Below, piece by piece: positions 85-10,690 of a stretch of DNA of 11,700 nucleotides (its first letter is position 1; each line of letters starts with the position of its first letter). A model generated the notes under the pieces. The model did not search any database. It was not told the origin of the DNA and saw only the letters and a program-made list of their open reading frames with translations. This stretch comes from a virus (Duplodnaviria > Heunggongvirae > Uroviricota > Caudoviricetes). The translations under genes and the position numbers were made by a program. The stretch spans positions 1-11,700 of IMG/VR virus record IMGVR_UViG_2657244940_000002; one strand, written 5' to 3'.

Positions 85-1380
85 TTAATTTTGCACCACC
101 TCGTTTTGGGGCATGGTTGGGGCAAATTCGCTTAGCTGTGTATTTAACAGGGCTACCTGTGCATTATTGTTTTCAGACATCCATTTCCCGTATACCTGAA
201 ACACCATTTGCGCATCTGCATGTCCCATCTGGTTTGCTATGAATGCCGGGTTGGCACCGGCTGTCAGCGACCAGCAGGCATAAGTATGTCTCGACTGATA
301 TGATTTGCGGTGGCGGAGGCCAGCGCGCTTTATCGCTGCGTCCCACATCTGCCTTATTGAGTCAACGGTAAAATGGTCACCATAATTTTTTACTCTCGCT
401 GACACTTCAGGTTGAAAAACAAAGGTGCATTTTTGTTTTTCTGTTCTGCCGAACTCTCTGAGGTGAACGTCAATAATATGTTCTTTGCTCAGCCTCGTTA
501 GTGTCATCTGACTCCTGAGAGCGTCGATTGCAGGCTTGATAAGGTGAATTACCCGATTGGTACCAGCCTGTGTTTTCGGTACCGTAAAACGATCTTTTGC
601 TAAATTTCTCCTGATCATCATTGTTCCATTTTTCAGATCTATATCCTCCCACCCAAGCGCACACAGTTCACCAGGGCGAATGCCTGTATAAACAGAAACA
701 CACCATAAATTTTTGGCCTGCTGATTTCTGCAGGCGTCGATAAGACGGATAAATTCCTCCCGTGAAAGAGGATCAGGAATGGTTCTTGATTCCTTTAATG
801 GCGAGATCCCCTTAAACGGATTATCTGCCAGGTAACCGTTATCAACACCGAACTGGAACACGGCGTAAAGATTTGTCATGTAATTATTTACGGTGACAGC
901 CGATCTCCCCGGTTGCGTAACAATATAATTACTTTTGGGGATCTGGTATCCAGTAAGTAATTCTTTACGTACCGCCAGCAATTTTTCTTTATTAATCGAC
1001 GAGGCAAGATTTTTTTCACCGATTATGCTCAGAATATTTTTGATGACGGCACGGTACGTGTTGAGTGACGTTTTTGCGACTTCCGTTTCTTTCAGTGCCA
1101 GAAATTTTTCAGCCAGTTCCTTTATGGTTAAATCTTGTCGGGCCTCACCAAATTTTTCCAGATTGTGTGAGGAGGGAAACTGTTTTGCATAGTCGAAAAC
1201 GCCGGTTTTTATTGCATAACAAACAGAGGCGCGCAGCTCACCTGCAACGCGCCTGTTTTTTGTCGTGTCAGGAACCCCCAGATTTTCCCTGACTCTTACA
1301 CCTTTATAAACAAACCAGATACGTAATTTCCCTCCATGGTTTTCCACGCCTGTCGGATATTTCATTTTAGCTTCTCTCAT
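85..1380 (-). CDS. int: Phage tyrosine integrase (site-specific recombinase)
   Basis: 431-aa ORF. C-terminal catalytic region shows the tyrosine-recombinase pattern (…LRHRKSYQSRHTYACW…GHADAQMVFQVYGKWM). A small Xis-like ORF lies directly upstream on the same strand. An alternative start at 1365 (MKYPTG…) has a slightly better Shine-Dalgarno context (AGAGAAG) than the ATG at 1380. Confidence 0.9.
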   Translation of the reverse strand: MREAKMKYPTGVENHGGKLRIWFVYKGVRVRENLGVPDTTKNRRVAGELRASVCYAIKTGVFDYAKQFPSSHNLEKFGEARQDLTIKELAEKFLALKETEVAKTSLNTYRAVIKNILSIIGEKNLASSINKEKLLAVRKELLTGYQIPKSNYIVTQPGRSAVTVNNYMTNLYAVFQFGVDNGYLADNPFKGISPLKESRTIPDPLSREEFIRLIDACRNQQAKNLWCVSVYTGIRPGELCALGWEDIDLKNGTMMIRRNLAKDRFTVPKTQAGTNRVIHLIKPAIDALRSQMTLTRLSKEHIIDVHLREFGRTEKQKCTFVFQPEVSARVKNYGDHFTVDSIRQMWDAAIKRAGLRHRKSYQSRHTYACWSLTAGANPAFIANQMGHADAQMVFQVYGKWMSENNNAQVALLNTQLSEFAPTMPQNEVVQN

Positions 1381-1720: not shown

Positions 1721-4201
1721 TTAAAAATCAGCCTGACTCGGGATCAGTTTTTGTATCGTAGCTGTAACGTATTTTGCCTGGTGACGGGCGTCATCCAGTG
1801 CATTGTGGCGCACGCCTTCGAATGGAATAACGGTTCTGGCATCAAAGTCGATTGTTTTTCCCAGCTCAACGATTGTGCGTACATCGCGATCGTTGTGGTA
1901 GCGCCACGGGCAGGGGATGTCCAGACGTTCGTATGAGGTGCGCAAAATTGCGTTATCGAAAGTCGCATCATTACCCCATACCTGAACGAATTTTTCATCT
2001 GAGTATTCGTTGATGAACTCCCGAAACTGCGAAAGGGCATCCTTCAGTTTTACCTGGTCTGTTAAAATGGCAGCTCTGGCTTCACTGGACTGCTTCAGCC
2101 ACCATTCGATGGTTCCACCGTCAGGAACAGCCCCTGTATTCATTGCGTCAGTCAGACTGATAACGATATAAAATACTGGCCCGATTTCCCCTGTTTGTGG
2201 GTCGAAGAAAACCGCACCAATAACCACGATGGGCGCATTGGTGTTGGTTCCCATTGTTTCAAGGTCGATCATCAAGTGGTACCACACTCTGCTGGTGGAT
2301 GTGATAACGTGATGACCGTTCACCGCAATTAAGGGATCTGCCGTCTCGCCAGTTTCATTATCGCTGGCGTGGTCCTGAGCGCTGCCAGCATTCTCCTTGT
2401 GTGGATGTTCAGCGCCTTCCATTTCCTCCGGATCATTTTCCTGAACTTCAACCTGATTCTCTTCATTGAATGTTTCCTGGTATGTTGCGTCGCCCATCAC
2501 CGCGCCACAATCAGGGCAGTTGCCGCCGCCGGTCTGACCGCAGGCGGTGCAGATCTTTTCCGGTTCCTGTTGCACTACTGGTTCAGGTTGTTTCGTTTCT
2601 GGCTCATTTTGTAACGCATTTGGGCTGTTTTGTTCCGCTTTCTGGCCGTTCTGTTCCGTTTCTTGCTGGTTCTGGTTCACAGAATCGCGGGTTTCCATCC
2701 CCTTCACCCATTTCGGATCATTCGGATCGCTAATTCCTGCAACAAATTCACCACGTGATACTGCAAGCAGTTCATCGGCGTCAGGCTGGCTGATATTGGC
2801 TGCCTGCATAATGTTGTTTACTTCGTCAGCGGTAACTTTTACCGGCCCTGGTTGTGCGGTCGTGTCAGATGCACCAGTATTTTGTTGTGAACCTGAGTAT
2901 GTACTGTTTTTGCGGACGAAATATTCTTCTTTCGTGATTTCAGTAGCCCCGGCAGCCAGTGCCTTATCCAGACCAGAAAGTTTGTTTGCGCGACCGTATT
3001 TTTCGCCATCCTTGTCGGTGAAGAGGAAGTAGAACGGCCCCTCACGCTCTACAGATGGTTCGACTTCCACTTTGCATTCGGTTTTTTCGTTGTCCGGAAT
3101 TGCCGTTTCCACTGCATCAGTTTCTGGTACTGGCGACGAGAGAGTATCAGTTGCGATCTGATTTGTTCCTTCATCTTCAAACACGCCCTTTGTAGTCAGG
3201 TATTCAGTAATGTATTTGTTCAGTGCCACAGGGTCTTTGTGAATGTCGATCGGACGCTCACGGACAAGGCCAAAAATAGTCTGGCGGTCGTAGCGAAGGG
3301 CATCAGGCTGTTTGCGCATTGATGCTGAGATACGCTTCCAGTCTTCGCGGTCGTTGTTGATAACTTCATTTTTTGCCCAGCGATGGATGCTGCCGTCAAT
3401 GTTTCCGGCATCAATGTCACCAGGCCACAGAGCGTAGGCCAGTTCATCATCCAGTGTTTTCCATGTCTGCTTATATTCGCGACGAATGACTGCAGTGACA
3501 GGGGAGATATTTTCTGCTGAGTTTTCAGTGTGCTGTCGGTTGACTCTGGCGCGGGCGAGATCAACAGCAGACGTGTATTTTCCGGTTTCCTTGCGTTCAC
3601 CTTCGCGACGTTTTTTCCAGATGCGCATCTCTGCCTGAATTTCGGGCCATTTAGCTCCAGGCTTACATTTATGCTTAACCCACCCGATGGCATGCAACTT
3701 AAGTTCTGGATACATGGCGTTAACTTCTGGCATTTTCATCAACGCTTCAACGATATGTCCGTCGAATGTTGCCATGTCTTCCTGCAACAGTTCCTGTGCA
3801 CTAATCACCATATCAACGGTGATGTTTTCACATGTGTCGAACTTAACCATGACAGCGTTCTGTACTTCAGGGGCCAGCTTGTCAAAAGTGACGTTCATCG
3901 GATCTGATTCAGTCTCAACCGGGACAAAGGAAGCTGACTCCTCATCCCAGCGGTTTTCCTGCATATATTCAGCATCCCAGGAATCGAGGGCAGGGCGGGG
4001 TATACCGGGTTTATCCTCGCAAACAAGAAATTTATAAGCGCAGTCCTGAGCAGCCGGATAATGTTCCAGGAATTGCCAGTGAAATTTTGCGCGGGCGCGA
4101 CGTTCATCACCGGCTTCAATGGCAGTGGCTACAGCGACTGCACCTTCTTCCTTTATTGCCTGTTCGTCCGGAATGGCGGCGCAAATAAAGACTTTACTCA
4201 T
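1721..4201 (-). CDS. Large phage exonuclease with C-terminal DEDDh (DnaQ-like) 3'-5' exonuclease domain
   Basis: 826-aa ORF with GAGG about 11 nt upstream of the ATG. C-terminal ~190 aa (nt 1724-2284) carry the three DEDDh motifs: MIDLETMG (Exo I), WGNDATFDN (Exo II), HNALDDARHQA (Exo III). Central Cx2C-x11-Cx2C zinc ribbon (CTACGQTGGGNCPDCG, nt ~2506-2551) flanked by acidic Q/E/P-rich linkers. It occupies the exo/recE slot of lambdoid prophages. Confidence 0.85.
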   Translation of the reverse strand: MSKVFICAAIPDEQAIKEEGAVAVATAIEAGDERRARAKFHWQFLEHYPAAQDCAYKFLVCEDKPGIPRPALDSWDAEYMQENRWDEESASFVPVETESDPMNVTFDKLAPEVQNAVMVKFDTCENITVDMVISAQELLQEDMATFDGHIVEALMKMPEVNAMYPELKLHAIGWVKHKCKPGAKWPEIQAEMRIWKKRREGERKETGKYTSAVDLARARVNRQHTENSAENISPVTAVIRREYKQTWKTLDDELAYALWPGDIDAGNIDGSIHRWAKNEVINNDREDWKRISASMRKQPDALRYDRQTIFGLVRERPIDIHKDPVALNKYITEYLTTKGVFEDEGTNQIATDTLSSPVPETDAVETAIPDNEKTECKVEVEPSVEREGPFYFLFTDKDGEKYGRANKLSGLDKALAAGATEITKEEYFVRKNSTYSGSQQNTGASDTTAQPGPVKVTADEVNNIMQAANISQPDADELLAVSRGEFVAGISDPNDPKWVKGMETRDSVNQNQQETEQNGQKAEQNSPNALQNEPETKQPEPVVQQEPEKICTACGQTGGGNCPDCGAVMGDATYQETFNEENQVEVQENDPEEMEGAEHPHKENAGSAQDHASDNETGETADPLIAVNGHHVITSTSRVWYHLMIDLETMGTNTNAPIVVIGAVFFDPQTGEIGPVFYIVISLTDAMNTGAVPDGGTIEWWLKQSSEARAAILTDQVKLKDALSQFREFINEYSDEKFVQVWGNDATFDNAILRTSYERLDIPCPWRYHNDRDVRTIVELGKTIDFDARTVIPFEGVRHNALDDARHQAKYVTATIQKLIPSQADF

Positions 4202-4281: not shown

Positions 4282-4485
4282 TTACGGTGCTGTTTTAAGT
4301 CCTGCCGGGATTTCGTTATTATCCATGTGAATAACTTTATCGACCGGATAGCAGTTACCGGGAATTTTTTGTTCTGCTGCGGCAGCCATGCATTCTTTCA
4401 TTGAACCGTAAATGTCAATAACCATGTCAACAGGCTCGCCAGTATTAAGAAAAACAGTCAGAGTGAGGGCAATAGTAGTATTCAT
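4282..4485 (-). CDS. ydfD: YdfD-like small membrane (lysis-type) protein
   Basis: 67-aa ORF starting at the internal ATG (MNTTIALTLTVFLNTGEPV…) with a hydrophobic N-terminal segment. Its ATG overlaps the dicB stop as ATGA. Synteny dicB-ydfD matches Qin prophage. The longer track ORF (to 4539) would overlap dicB. Confidence 0.6.
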   Translation of the reverse strand: MNTTIALTLTVFLNTGEPVDMVIDIYGSMKECMAAAAEQKIPGNCYPVDKVIHMDNNEIPAGLKTAP

Positions 4486-4670
4486 TGCCAGTATCCTTTT
4501 TGCATCGGGCGTAAACGTGCCAGCATTGAAAGAATGCATATTTTATTTAATAGCTCCCGTTCGTGTTTTCTCTTATTAATGGCATCTTCAGTAAATACAG
4601 GGTTACTGATTCTGACACCAATTTCAAAACAACCTTCAGACGTATTGACGTTTGGTAATAACGTTTCCAT
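4482..4670 (-). CDS. dicB: Cell-division inhibitor DicB
   Basis: 62-aa product METLLPNVNTSEGCFEIGVRISNPVFTEDAINKRKHERELLNKICILSMLARLRPMQKGYWQ closely matches my recollection of E. coli K-12 DicB (62 aa). GAGG lies 8 nt upstream of the ATG at 4670. The 94-aa track ORF is an upstream extension with no RBS. Confidence 0.8.
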   Translation of the reverse strand: METLLPNVNTSEGCFEIGVRISNPVFTEDAINKRKHERELLNKICILSMLARLRPMQKGYWQ

Positions 4671-4853
4671 TATCGCGTCCTCAACAATGAATTTTGTGAT
4701 GCGGTGCCTGGTGCCTCCAGGTGACGTTAACCAGTTAATAATTAACGCCGGATACAGAGAACCCACCCATAAGAACCAATACGGAAGTCAACTGGCCTTT
4801 TTAACTGTTCCGCGTGCGCTGAGCCGCATTCACCGCATCACAAAATTCACTTT

Positions 4854-4916
4854 AAAAGGGGCGGGTATCATGGGAAAAACAAAACGGATACCCGCCAAAA
4901 GGTAATCAACATGGGT
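4854..4916 (-). ncRNA. dicF: DicF-like small RNA (divergent homolog) with intrinsic terminator
   Basis: Minus-strand sequence …CCATGTTGATTACCTTTTGGCGGGTATCCGTTTTGTTTTTCCCATGATACCCGCCCCTTTT, about 175 nt upstream of dicB. It has a 10-bp stem (GGCGGGTATC/GATACCCGCC) followed by CCTTTT. The TTTGGCGG(G)TATC…GTTTT…CCGCCC(C)TTTT skeleton resembles my recollection of K-12 DicF, but the 5' and loop regions differ. Exact ends are uncertain. Confidence 0.45.
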
Positions 4917-5326
4917 TGTTGCAGCGGGGTTGTCACTCAGGCGTATGGTCAACCTGACAACCCGGTGGACATTTGCGAGGAACGGAGAACCCCCGCCATA
5001 CTTACCGCCGCGCCATTTCGCGGAGTGCCACAACCGGAAGCGCACGGTCGACGAAAATTTAACGACAGGCTATCTATGAACCAGCAACCTCGCCGTGCGC
5101 TTTCGCGTTATGCTCTGACTTTTCAGAGAAATATCCTTTCAGTAAACTGTCAGTGCCGGATGCTCACCCGTGTCCGGCGCACACACTCCACCTCACCCGT
5201 GGAGAACTCCTTAATTACCAACCCTCAGGAGGGTGAATGTTAAAATCAACGCTTATTGCTAAATGCCTTTATCAAAATCGCATGGTAAGCAGCATTTCAA
5301 TAGGCGAATCTGTAGTTAAAAGTATT

Positions 5327-5352
5327 TTCGAAGAGTACTTTCGAAGAGTACT
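5327..5352. repeat. Perfect 13-bp tandem duplication (TTCGAAGAGTACT x2)
   Basis: Read directly: …AGTATT TTCGAAGAGTACT TTCGAAGAGTACT TTTC…. Each unit contains the palindromes TTCGAA and AGTACT. It sits in AT-rich DNA downstream of the 135-aa cargo ORF. Confidence 0.8.
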
Positions 5353-5460: not shown

Positions 5461-5868
5461 TTAAAGATTTGTGGGATCTTTGATATCCACAGAGCCTAAA
5501 GTATGTGCATATGGATGTGCTATTGTGCGCCCCTGTAAATTTGCATCGTTTTCTAAATCTTTTGATTTCAACAGAACATCAGCAAGACTCTGAATCATGC
5601 AGAGATAATCAAAAACAGTTGCCGTTTCTGTTCTGATTGCTGAAATAACATGACCATTCAGGCAAACAGAAATTACCCGTTCATCAATATCGTTTTTCTG
5701 TTTTTGATTATCAGAACCATATAGCCCTGAAAAAGCATTGCGCACATTACGAACCATATTATCGATGGTTTCTTTTTTGGTGTATGCCGGGTCAATTTTC
5801 ACCAGACTATCACCGAGTGTCGTTGCAGCAATTATCTGGATTTCTTTTGGTAAATCTTTAAATTCCAT
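5461..5868 (-). CDS. Hypothetical protein, AT-rich cargo (moron-like) gene inside the dicB operon
   Basis: 135-aa ORF (MEFKDLPKEIQIIAATTLGDSLVK…) with GAGG 7 nt upstream of the ATG. It starts 22 nt after the ydfC-like stop on the same strand. The local sequence is markedly more AT-rich than its flanks. No motif I recognise, and no predicted transmembrane segment. Confidence 0.7.
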   Translation of the reverse strand: MEFKDLPKEIQIIAATTLGDSLVKIDPAYTKKETIDNMVRNVRNAFSGLYGSDNQKQKNDIDERVISVCLNGHVISAIRTETATVFDYLCMIQSLADVLLKSKDLENDANLQGRTIAHPYAHTLGSVDIKDPTNL

Positions 5869-6565: not shown

Positions 6566-6599
6566 CCAAAAAGATAACGCATTGATTGCGTTATCTTTT
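6566..6599 (-). terminator. Intrinsic terminator at the 3' end of dicA
   Basis: Minus strand: CAAAAGATAACGCA-ATCAA-TGCGTTATC-TTTTTGG, a 9-11 bp stem, 5-nt loop and U-tract. It overlaps the dicA stop codon and sits between dicA and the downstream operon promoter. The plus-strand reading also ends in a T-rich tail, so it may act bidirectionally. Confidence 0.45.
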
Positions 6600-6998
6600 G
6601 TTTGTTCGTTGACGGGCTTTTAATAACTCTTCAAAGAGTTTGTTGAAATTTTTTACTCGGGCGCGCATCTCGGTGAGCTGAGCATCCTGTTCTGATTCAG
6701 GCAATGCATTAAAAAGCTCAAGGAGCTCATGTTCTTTGGGGGATAGAGCAACTGGCTCCTCAATAGGTGGTGATGGCTGCTTGTCTTCATCGCCAAATAG
6801 AATCCATGTTGGCGAGCACTGCAGTACTTTGCTGAGGGCAAAAAGATTCTTTCCTGTAGGTTCGCTATCATCCCGCTCCCATTGTGAAACCGATACGTGA
6901 GAAATTTTCAGGGCTTTAGCAAGAGACCTTTGGGTGTATTTGAGGTTTTTTCGGCGATATCTAATGCGTTCGCCAATGGTTAAATTTTTTGTATCCAT
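6591..6998 (-). CDS. dicA: Prophage repressor DicA (XRE-family HTH, P22 C2-like)
   Basis: 135-aa ORF with an N-terminal HTH (…YTQRSLAKALKISHVSVSQWERD…). It closely matches my recollection of K-12 DicA (same length). It is divergent from a cro-like gene, with palindromic operators in the intergenic region. Confidence 0.85.
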   Translation of the reverse strand: MDTKNLTIGERIRYRRKNLKYTQRSLAKALKISHVSVSQWERDDSEPTGKNLFALSKVLQCSPTWILFGDEDKQPSPPIEEPVALSPKEHELLELFNALPESEQDAQLTEMRARVKNFNKLFEELLKARQRTNKR

Positions 6999-10248: not shown

Positions 10249-10690
10249 TTACCAGGCATTACGTGAACGTTATTCACCAATTCAGGTGCCGGAATGTTCT
10301 GTTTGTGGCGATGAAATGTCGATACAGCGCATATTTTCCAGAGCGCATATTGTGTATGCCTGCACAGGTGAGGGGGATGATGGATATTTTAAAACTGGTC
10401 GAACTTTTGCGGATGAACATTACCTGAAATCGCGCGTAACCGTCGTTGATGTTAGCGATCCTGACGTACTGGCTTTACTGAAAGAGCTGGAAGTTAAAGA
10501 CAAACGCATTGCAGAATTGACAGACGCGCTTACACAAATGATTAATGCGCACAAAACCACAATTCGTTTTGGTCATGAACGCATAACTGAATGTGGTGGT
10601 GATTGCGACTCGCCGGAAAAGATGATTTCAGAAAATCCGGATATCAGAATGGCAGAGGCTGTTTTGAGAGCAGGAATAAAAACTGAATAA
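10235..10690 (+). CDS. Hypothetical protein with Cys clusters (possible zinc-binding), GTG start
   Basis: 151-aa ORF starting at a GTG with AGGAGA 6 nt upstream. It overlaps the previous gene by 14 nt. Contains CxxC (ECSVCGDE) and CGGDC cysteine clusters and a central coiled-coil-like segment. Confidence 0.6.
   Translation: MCKTNYQALRERYSPIQVPECSVCGDEMSIQRIFSRAHIVYACTGEGDDGYFKTGRTFADEHYLKSRVTVVDVSDPDVLALLKELEVKDKRIAELTDALTQMINAHKTTIRFGHERITECGGDCDSPEKMISENPDIRMAEAVLRAGIKTE

Follow-up and report, generated by a model that had tools for sequence, protein, structure and literature searches.

The dicB operon leader in the window (the whole 11,700-nt stretch of viral DNA that was analyzed) carries a hairpin element at the position that is orthologous to dicF of Escherichia coli K-12. 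The scaffold and flanks of this element are conserved, its recognition segments are replaced, its predicted pairing with the known DicF targets is lost, and its parts are found re-assorted as modules among related prophages. Judged by its sequence, the element is a previously undescribed variant on the DicF/KilS scaffold. The reading that we favor, with a probability of about 0.5 for all of its parts taken jointly, is that it would be an unannotated and strongly diverged allele of the DicF/KilS type of 5'-UTR RNA module, which acts as a trans-acting sRNA on targets differing from those of DicF, while its hairpin also serves as a partial terminator before dicB. DicF is a textbook prophage sRNA of E. 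coli K-12 (b1574), encoded just upstream of dicB in the Qin prophage; its transcript is stable (~53/72 nt), binds Hfq and is shaped by RNase E and RNase III processing together with termination.

Genomic context

The window represents the early region of a lambdoid prophage that is read in the minus-strand direction. In list order, the integrase gene (1380..85, minus strand) is followed by the genes for an excisionase, an 826-aa exonuclease and a DUF1482 protein and then by dicB (4670..4482, minus strand), the 62-aa product of which, a cell-division inhibitor, matches Pfam PF05358 (DicB) with E = 4.4e-37. A ydfC-like gene and an HTH repressor gene (6998..6591) are located further upstream of dicB, as are the divergently oriented genes of a P22-type Cro and YdaT. 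The corresponding locus of E. coli 602354 is 99.2% identical to the window, and its RefSeq/PGAP annotation names the gene dicB and includes ydfA, ydfB and ydfC homologues, with no ncRNA annotated. The element is thereby placed where DicF is expected, in the leader of the dicB operon and downstream of ydfA/ydfB/ydfC-type genes.

The untranslated part of this leader (4925..5227, minus strand), which ends in ...GACAACCCCGCUGCAAC, is ~95% identical to the ydfC-dicF spacer of K-12, and neither of its strands contains a conserved ORF. We also noticed a 135-aa ORF (5461..5868, minus strand) without a Pfam match, located between this leader and the ydfC-like gene; the near-identical genome lists it as a hypothetical protein, and K-12 Qin has no counterpart at this position. 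A direct tandem repeat (~5322..5352, visible on either strand), made of two full copies of GTACTCTTCGAAA and part of a third, immediately precedes the conserved leader, inside the stretch that is missing from K-12.

Anatomy and fold of the element

The element occupies positions 4917..4854 on the minus strand, with 184 nt between the end of its U run and the dicB ATG. The feature that the original prediction had placed here is real, a stable hairpin upstream of a confirmed dicB. The 5' part is a 21-nt tail (4897..4917, AACCCAUGUUGAUUACCUUUU), referred to below as module B, which stands in place of the DicF precursor and 5' seed (...GUUAUCAAUUUUCUGGUGACGUUU). It is followed by the 5' arm of the hairpin (4887..4896, GGCGGGUAUC), with a residual likeness to the DicF 5' arm GGCGGUAUCAG, and by a 17-nt U/C-rich loop (4870..4886, CGUUUUGUUUUUCCCAU), which takes the place of UUUUACUCCGUGA, the loop by which DicF pairs with pykA and ftsZ. 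The 3' arm (4860..4869, GAUACCCGCC) is the perfect complement of the 5' arm; in DicF the stretch at this position, CUGCUCUGCCGCC, belongs to the region pairing with ftsZ and manX. The element closes with CC and a tract of only four U (4854..4859), where transcription presumably terminates and Hfq presumably binds the 3' end, so that the minus strand after the stem reads CC UUUU AAAG (4859..4850).

The stem GGCGGGUAUC/GAUACCCGCC is a perfect, GC-rich helix of 10 bp. A 71-nt stretch folds at -18.7 kcal/mol (z = -4.3), a stability reached by none of 200 dinucleotide shuffles, and the hairpin alone accounts for -16.4 kcal/mol. The putative terminator, which had been described as retained, consists of a 10-bp GC-rich hairpin followed by a U run and is atypical, with a loop of 17 nt and 4 U in contrast to the 5 U of most other alleles, and the hairpin was not called by a consensus terminator scan. 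No minus-strand sigma-70 promoter was found near the cassette by consensus scan.

Comparison with K-12 DicF

From UUUUAAAGUGAAUUUUG to the dicB start codon the window is ~95% identical to K-12, where the spacing between dicF and dicB is 174 nt as compared with 184 nt here. The divergence is limited to a cassette of 61 nt, located between ...GCUGCAAC and UUUUAAAG; the K-12 cassette, with 71 nt, is 10 nt longer. Within the cassette, the DicF 5' seed UUUCUGGUGACG has no counterpart and is essentially deleted, while the DicF loop and 3' arm ACUCCGUGACUGCUCUGCC are replaced. A residual likeness resides in the 5'-arm region, in which 17 of 19 positions are identical (TTTGGC-GGTATCAGTTTT vs TTTGGCGGGTATCCGTTTT), with a local alignment score of 26 that was reached by none of 2000 shuffles. 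The K-12 sequence from which the original prediction argued (UUUCUGGUGACGUUUGGCGG...) is correct, as a check against K-12 confirmed, and the alignment bears out that the element is not identical to DicF. Its claim of an altered 5' portion and loop holds, and extends to the 3' arm, but the 5' arm of the hairpin is little changed and the seed is essentially lost rather than altered.

The covariance model search that had been proposed as a check came out negative. RF00039 gives no match at its gathering score (48 bits) over the whole window, and no match at E<=10 in 601 nt or 101 nt around the element; K-12 DicF, used as positive control, scores 76.7 bits. The cassette matches no Rfam family at E<=10. 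Since RF00039 does not match, the element is not to be filed as DicF, whose defining seeds it likewise lacks, and what stands of the proposed DicF likeness is a divergent dicF relative at the orthologous site, with the scaffold kept.

We also built a scaffold covariance model (R1) from 20 alleles that are not of the window type (DicF, KilS, the H3 class described below and others). The best match to this model anywhere in the window, with 22.7 bits (rough E ~1.6e-6), is 4899..4854 on the minus strand, a match that covers the outer stem and flanks only and skips 27 inner nucleotides. The second-best match, at 10630..10688 on the minus strand (13.2 bits, rough E 0.011), has CAGUUUU...CUGAUAUCCG in common with the model and is probably due to chance or to an unrelated terminator. 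Covariation across the hairpin classes, which pair in different registers, is weak when scored by column, with one compensatory change among the only 8 common pairs that could be scored.

Long-range helix and processing context

A long-range helix begins straight after the U tract. Its 5' strand (4831..4851, minus strand, AGUGAAUUUUGUGAUGCGGUG) is identical in K-12 Qin and Rac, and its 3' strand (4686..4706, minus strand, CACCGCAUCACAAAAUUCAUU) is located just upstream of the dicB ribosome-binding site. In an alignment of Rac, Qin, the window and phage pPE4, considered together with predicted folds, the hairpin is directly followed by the helix strand AAAGUGAAUUUUGUGAUGCGGUG and then by the structured leader of a division-inhibitor gene, either dicB or kil. 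The predicted folds of 261 nt of the window and of the equivalent K-12 stretch share the same architecture, in which 4851..4831 is paired with 4706..4686 over ~21 bp and the dicB leader is enclosed; the signals that shape the 3' ends of DicF should therefore be intact here. The 72-nt form of DicF has an RNase III-dependent 3' end, 19 nt beyond that of the 53-nt form (PMC5069750), and we infer that this end would fall in the 5' strand of the helix (4831..4851).

The structured dicB leader within the helix (4693..4847, minus strand) gives a sub-threshold match to the Rfam family STnc100 (RF02076), at 33.5 bits in relation to a gathering score of 47. The same family scores 34.1 bits in K-12 Qin (1047..1187 of extract L003) and 27.8 bits in K-12 Rac (3257..3399 of extract L356, minus strand). 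In the minimum-free-energy fold, CCUU at 4856..4859 is paired with GAGG of the dicB Shine-Dalgarno region (4679..4682, minus strand), and this one predicted fold hints at a link in cis between termination or processing at the hairpin and the translation of dicB.

KilS and the modular mosaic at the site

In K-12 Rac, the ncRNA kilS (b4833) is annotated 175 nt upstream of kilR. KilS is a northern-verified sRNA from the kilR 5' UTR, detected by Hfq RIL-seq (Bar et al. 2021, PMC8175672), and it may have a promoter of its own (PMC8175672). It is located at NC_000913.3 1418405-1418502 (3406..3503 of extract L356, minus strand), and the comparable stretch of the window is 4917..4829. KilS and Qin DicF are alike in hairpin base and U tract, their 3' flanks are identical and their leaders homologous, and RF00039 scores Rac KilS at 39.1 bits, below threshold. 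Alignment of the 5' region and loop specific to KilS (UUUUUUUCUUGAAGUUCGG) shows no similarity to the window beyond the stem base and flanks. A scaffold in common with a second sRNA, and a mosaic of exchangeable modules, go beyond the original prediction. In the literature searched, we found no paper that names DicF and KilS together, and no description of natural divergent dicF alleles.

IMG/VR was scanned with the conserved flanks, with the B tail, and with the 3' flank alone. The 5' modules found at the site are A (DicF type), B (window type) and K (KilS), and the loops with their inner stems are of the DicF type, H2 (window type), H3 (CAUUGCUGG), the KilS type and rarer forms. These occur in the combinations A+DicF, A+H3', B+H2, B+H3, K+KilS, K+H3 and K+DicF loop, the B module thus being joined to two different hairpin types among prophages. 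All alleles fold as hairpins, with energies from -9.6 to -20 kcal/mol, which are followed by 4-5 U, and in a hybrid allele the stem base is compensatorily changed to GGUGG/CCACC. The H2 class includes several variants in U-run length and in C/U composition of the loop; in the H3 class the loop is less variable than the flanks. Some B-type loci in IMG/VR are decayed, with the 5' arm deleted (e.g. L172 and L193) or with a CCGTCC mismatch in the stem (L152 and L173), which suggests that the element is not uniformly constrained across all (cryptic) prophages.

Frequency and distribution

Canonical dicF is present in 3,975 of 5,426 complete E. coli genomes (6,702 places), and the window-type allele group in ~200 of the 5,426 (236 places), many of the carriers being ETEC and STEC isolates. 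Only 21 records are >=99% identical, and nowhere is the window-type group annotated. Carriers include E. coli 602354, ETEC-2265 and TW10722, as well as O55:H7/O121 strains with the H2' allele, and the 5,426 genomes contain ~11,000 copies of the leader in all. The annotation model misses the window allele, and the element at the dicF site consequently goes unannotated in ~200 complete E. coli genomes. Of 80 IMG/VR loci that were sampled by their flank only, 52 are of the DicF type and 14 of the KilS type, followed by 5 K+H3, 2 B+H2 and 1 B+H3, with other forms making up the remainder. A search of 596 Gb of genome contigs with an 18-base gapped pattern returned only chance matches in unrelated taxa.

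Among 50,697 phage records, the window type occurs in a single one, deposited as 'Actinobacillus phage vB_Apl-pPE4' (PP818812.1). The cassette is tandemly duplicated there, as a unit of ~85 nt upstream of the Kil gene (~2395..2478 and ~2484..2570 of extract L355), in an early region that is Rac-like and of E. coli type (DicA, YdaT, Kil, exonuclease VIII). For a sequence so near to E. coli prophages, such a host is unexpected.

Predicted pairing with DicF targets

DicF uses its 5' end to pair with xylR and its 3' region to pair with the ribosome-binding site of ftsZ (PMC5069750). Pairing was evaluated by a windowed scan for accessibility-corrected duplexes, using control shuffles that keep the stem and permute the tail or the loop only; whole-molecule duplex folding, which allows huge loops, gave no information. 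Applied to canonical DicF, the scan recovers xylR +11..+20 via the 5' end, pykA -18..-4 via the loop, manX +34..+50, and ftsZ -28..-7 via the 3' part, all of which are the published or expected sites. Relative to the shuffles, canonical DicF reaches p = 0.003 for the loop with pykA, 0.007 for the tail with xylR, and 0.053 for the loop with ftsZ.

The same scan, applied to the window allele and to three of its relatives, gives p = 0.14-0.87 for ftsZ, xylR, pykA and manX. The loop of the window allele is at p = 0.55 for ftsZ, 0.73 for pykA and 0.51 for manX, and the energy of the tail with xylR is reduced from -12.6 kcal/mol in DicF (p = 0.007) to -5.6 kcal/mol in the window (p = 0.17). With the pairings of the window allele at chance level, the targets known for DicF are not kept in silico. 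The possibility raised in the original prediction, that the target set of this variant may differ, stands on this result, as none of the four leaders that it had proposed for target prediction is paired above shuffles, and the element would probably not regulate the known targets of DicF. The loop of the related H3 class has a 9-bp match to ftsZ +11..+19, which is no better than shuffles.

Proposed mechanism and alternative explanations

On the reading that we favor, and by analogy with DicF, the RNA would be released from the DicA-repressed operon transcript. Its 3' end would be generated either by the hairpin acting as a partial intrinsic terminator or by an RNase III cut in the adjacent helix, and its 5' end by endonucleolytic cleavage in the upstream A/U-rich stretch, yielding a ~50-70-nt RNA that ends in the hairpin. 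This product would engage in putative Hfq-dependent pairing in trans, via its own 5' tail (CCCAUGUUGAUUACCUUUU) and/or the U/C-rich loop, with targets unlike those of DicF, while the hairpin may in addition set the level of transcription read-through into dicB. We consider a trans-acting sRNA to be the most likely role because DicF and KilS, built on the same scaffold, are verified Hfq sRNAs with different 5' and loop sequences. The persistence of the allele group in ~200 of 5,426 genomes and the H3 loop, less variable than its flanks, also count in favor. Points against the full reading are a 4-U tract and a 17-nt loop, which look weak both as a terminator and as an Hfq-binding module, the match of model R1 to outer stem and flanks only, and covariation limited to one compensatory pair.

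A considerable share of the probability, if clearly short of half, goes to an element that is a terminator or attenuator only, limiting read-through into toxic dicB and/or organizing the RNase III processing of the leader. It would be DicF-null in effect, give rise to no trans-acting RNA, and leave the 5' tail and loop free to drift or to be exchanged. What all alleles keep is the base of the stem, the U tract and the helix next to it, with tail and loop not conserved, and pairing with every known DicF target is at chance level. The U tract is short, and the loops of the H2 class differ by U-run indels, a variation that has the pattern expected of a loop free of pairing constraint; related loci are visibly decayed in some cases. 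DicF is toxic when expressed (PMC5069750), so that loss of the seed could be tolerated or even favored. However, divergence with sharp boundaries in flanks that are ~95% identical, combined with re-assorted modules, resembles the exchange of functional units and not drift, and Hfq sRNAs have been proven for two sister alleles (PMC5069750; PMC8175672). The H2 and H3 classes moreover carry an identical B tail, though the search pattern itself prescribed 16 of the 21 nt. We place the divergent, trans-acting allele ahead of an attenuator without trans function.

That the element still functions as DicF is improbable. The loop GUUUUUCCC is predicted to pair with the ftsZ Shine-Dalgarno sequence GGAGAGAAAC (-11..-2), through which it could repress ftsZ and so keep cell-division inhibition by another sequence; the 9-bp pairing lies over the ribosome-binding site, with one bulge and one G-U, and has an energy of -9.9 kcal/mol for hybridization and -7.1 kcal/mol in total, as compared with -8.6 for canonical DicF. 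Yet loop shuffles of the same composition are as good or better (p = 0.55 for the window; 0.77, 0.58 and 0.40 for the related alleles), pyrimidine-rich loops pair with nearly any Shine-Dalgarno sequence, and the 3' region of DicF, which is genetically required for repression of ftsZ (PMC5069750), is missing in the window. Hardly credible at all is a divergence due to coding, for which the ORF list offers a 110-aa plus-strand ORF that starts opposite the B tail (4911..5243, with its ATG from the B module) and, on the minus strand, an ORF of 71 aa that spans the cassette (5045..4830). The plus-strand ORF has 9, 55, 102, 110 or 200 codons at B-type loci, with a stop after 9 codons in 24 of them, no frame through the cassette survives its lengths of 52, 59, 61, 62, 64, 69 and 71 nt, and neither ORF is annotated by PGAP.

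A wider proposal, which we put forward tentatively and think rather doubtful in its full extent, is that DicF, KilS and the window allele belong to one modular 'seed-swap' platform. Its constant scaffold would consist of the leader, the base of the terminator hairpin and the RNase III helix before an FtsZ-inhibitor gene, on which tail and loop would be exchanged by recombination and an Hfq sRNA thus retargeted. The window allele would then function as an sRNA in ETEC/STEC lineages, and its regulon would be a new one other than that of ftsZ.

Significance

The site amounts to a natural experiment, in which the scaffold, the operon and the downstream toxin gene are constant and both recognition segments are exchanged. 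If the element is an active sRNA, it would exemplify horizontally transferred regulators that are retargeted by module exchange, and a strain-specific regulon would be added. If it is inert, the role of the hairpin in cis in dicB/kil expression would be the selected function, with a bearing on the wide retention of the toxic dicBF locus. A link between KilS and DicF as homologous alleles, which is absent from the literature searched, would tidy the classification of both. DicF itself has been surveyed only as copies with >99% identity (PMC5069750).

Comparison with known systems

Other prophage sRNAs were considered and rejected. The primer and probe sequences of sRNA-17 of the mEp460 prophage (PMC7719688) are not in the window, and AgvB and similar EHEC sRNAs are located in the late region (PMC7873438). 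Exact-sequence literature searches for the element returned nothing relevant. The STnc100 match suggests that this family is a Salmonella-side relative of the dicB/kilR leader, the likeness concerning the neighboring leader and not the hairpin cassette.

The window element resembles DicF in the base of the hairpin (UUUGGCGG...CCGCCC) with its U run, in the long helix downstream, in its place in the dicB leader and in the 5' arm. It differs by its perfect 10-bp helix and 4 U, where DicF has a two-part stem and 5 U. KilS differs from the window element by a longer and distinct 5' part (GGGAGUGCGCCUCCGGUUGUAAAUAACGACAUUGCUGUGUGUAGUCCU) and by a distinct loop, but it likewise resides in the 5' UTR of a prophage FtsZ-inhibitor gene, its 3' flank is identical to CCGCCCUUUUUAAAGUGAAUUUUGUGAUGCGGUGAAUGCGGCU of the window, it has the stem base in common with the window, and its stem GGCGGCAUCAG/CUGAUGUCCGCC is also used by the B+H3 relatives of the window allele.
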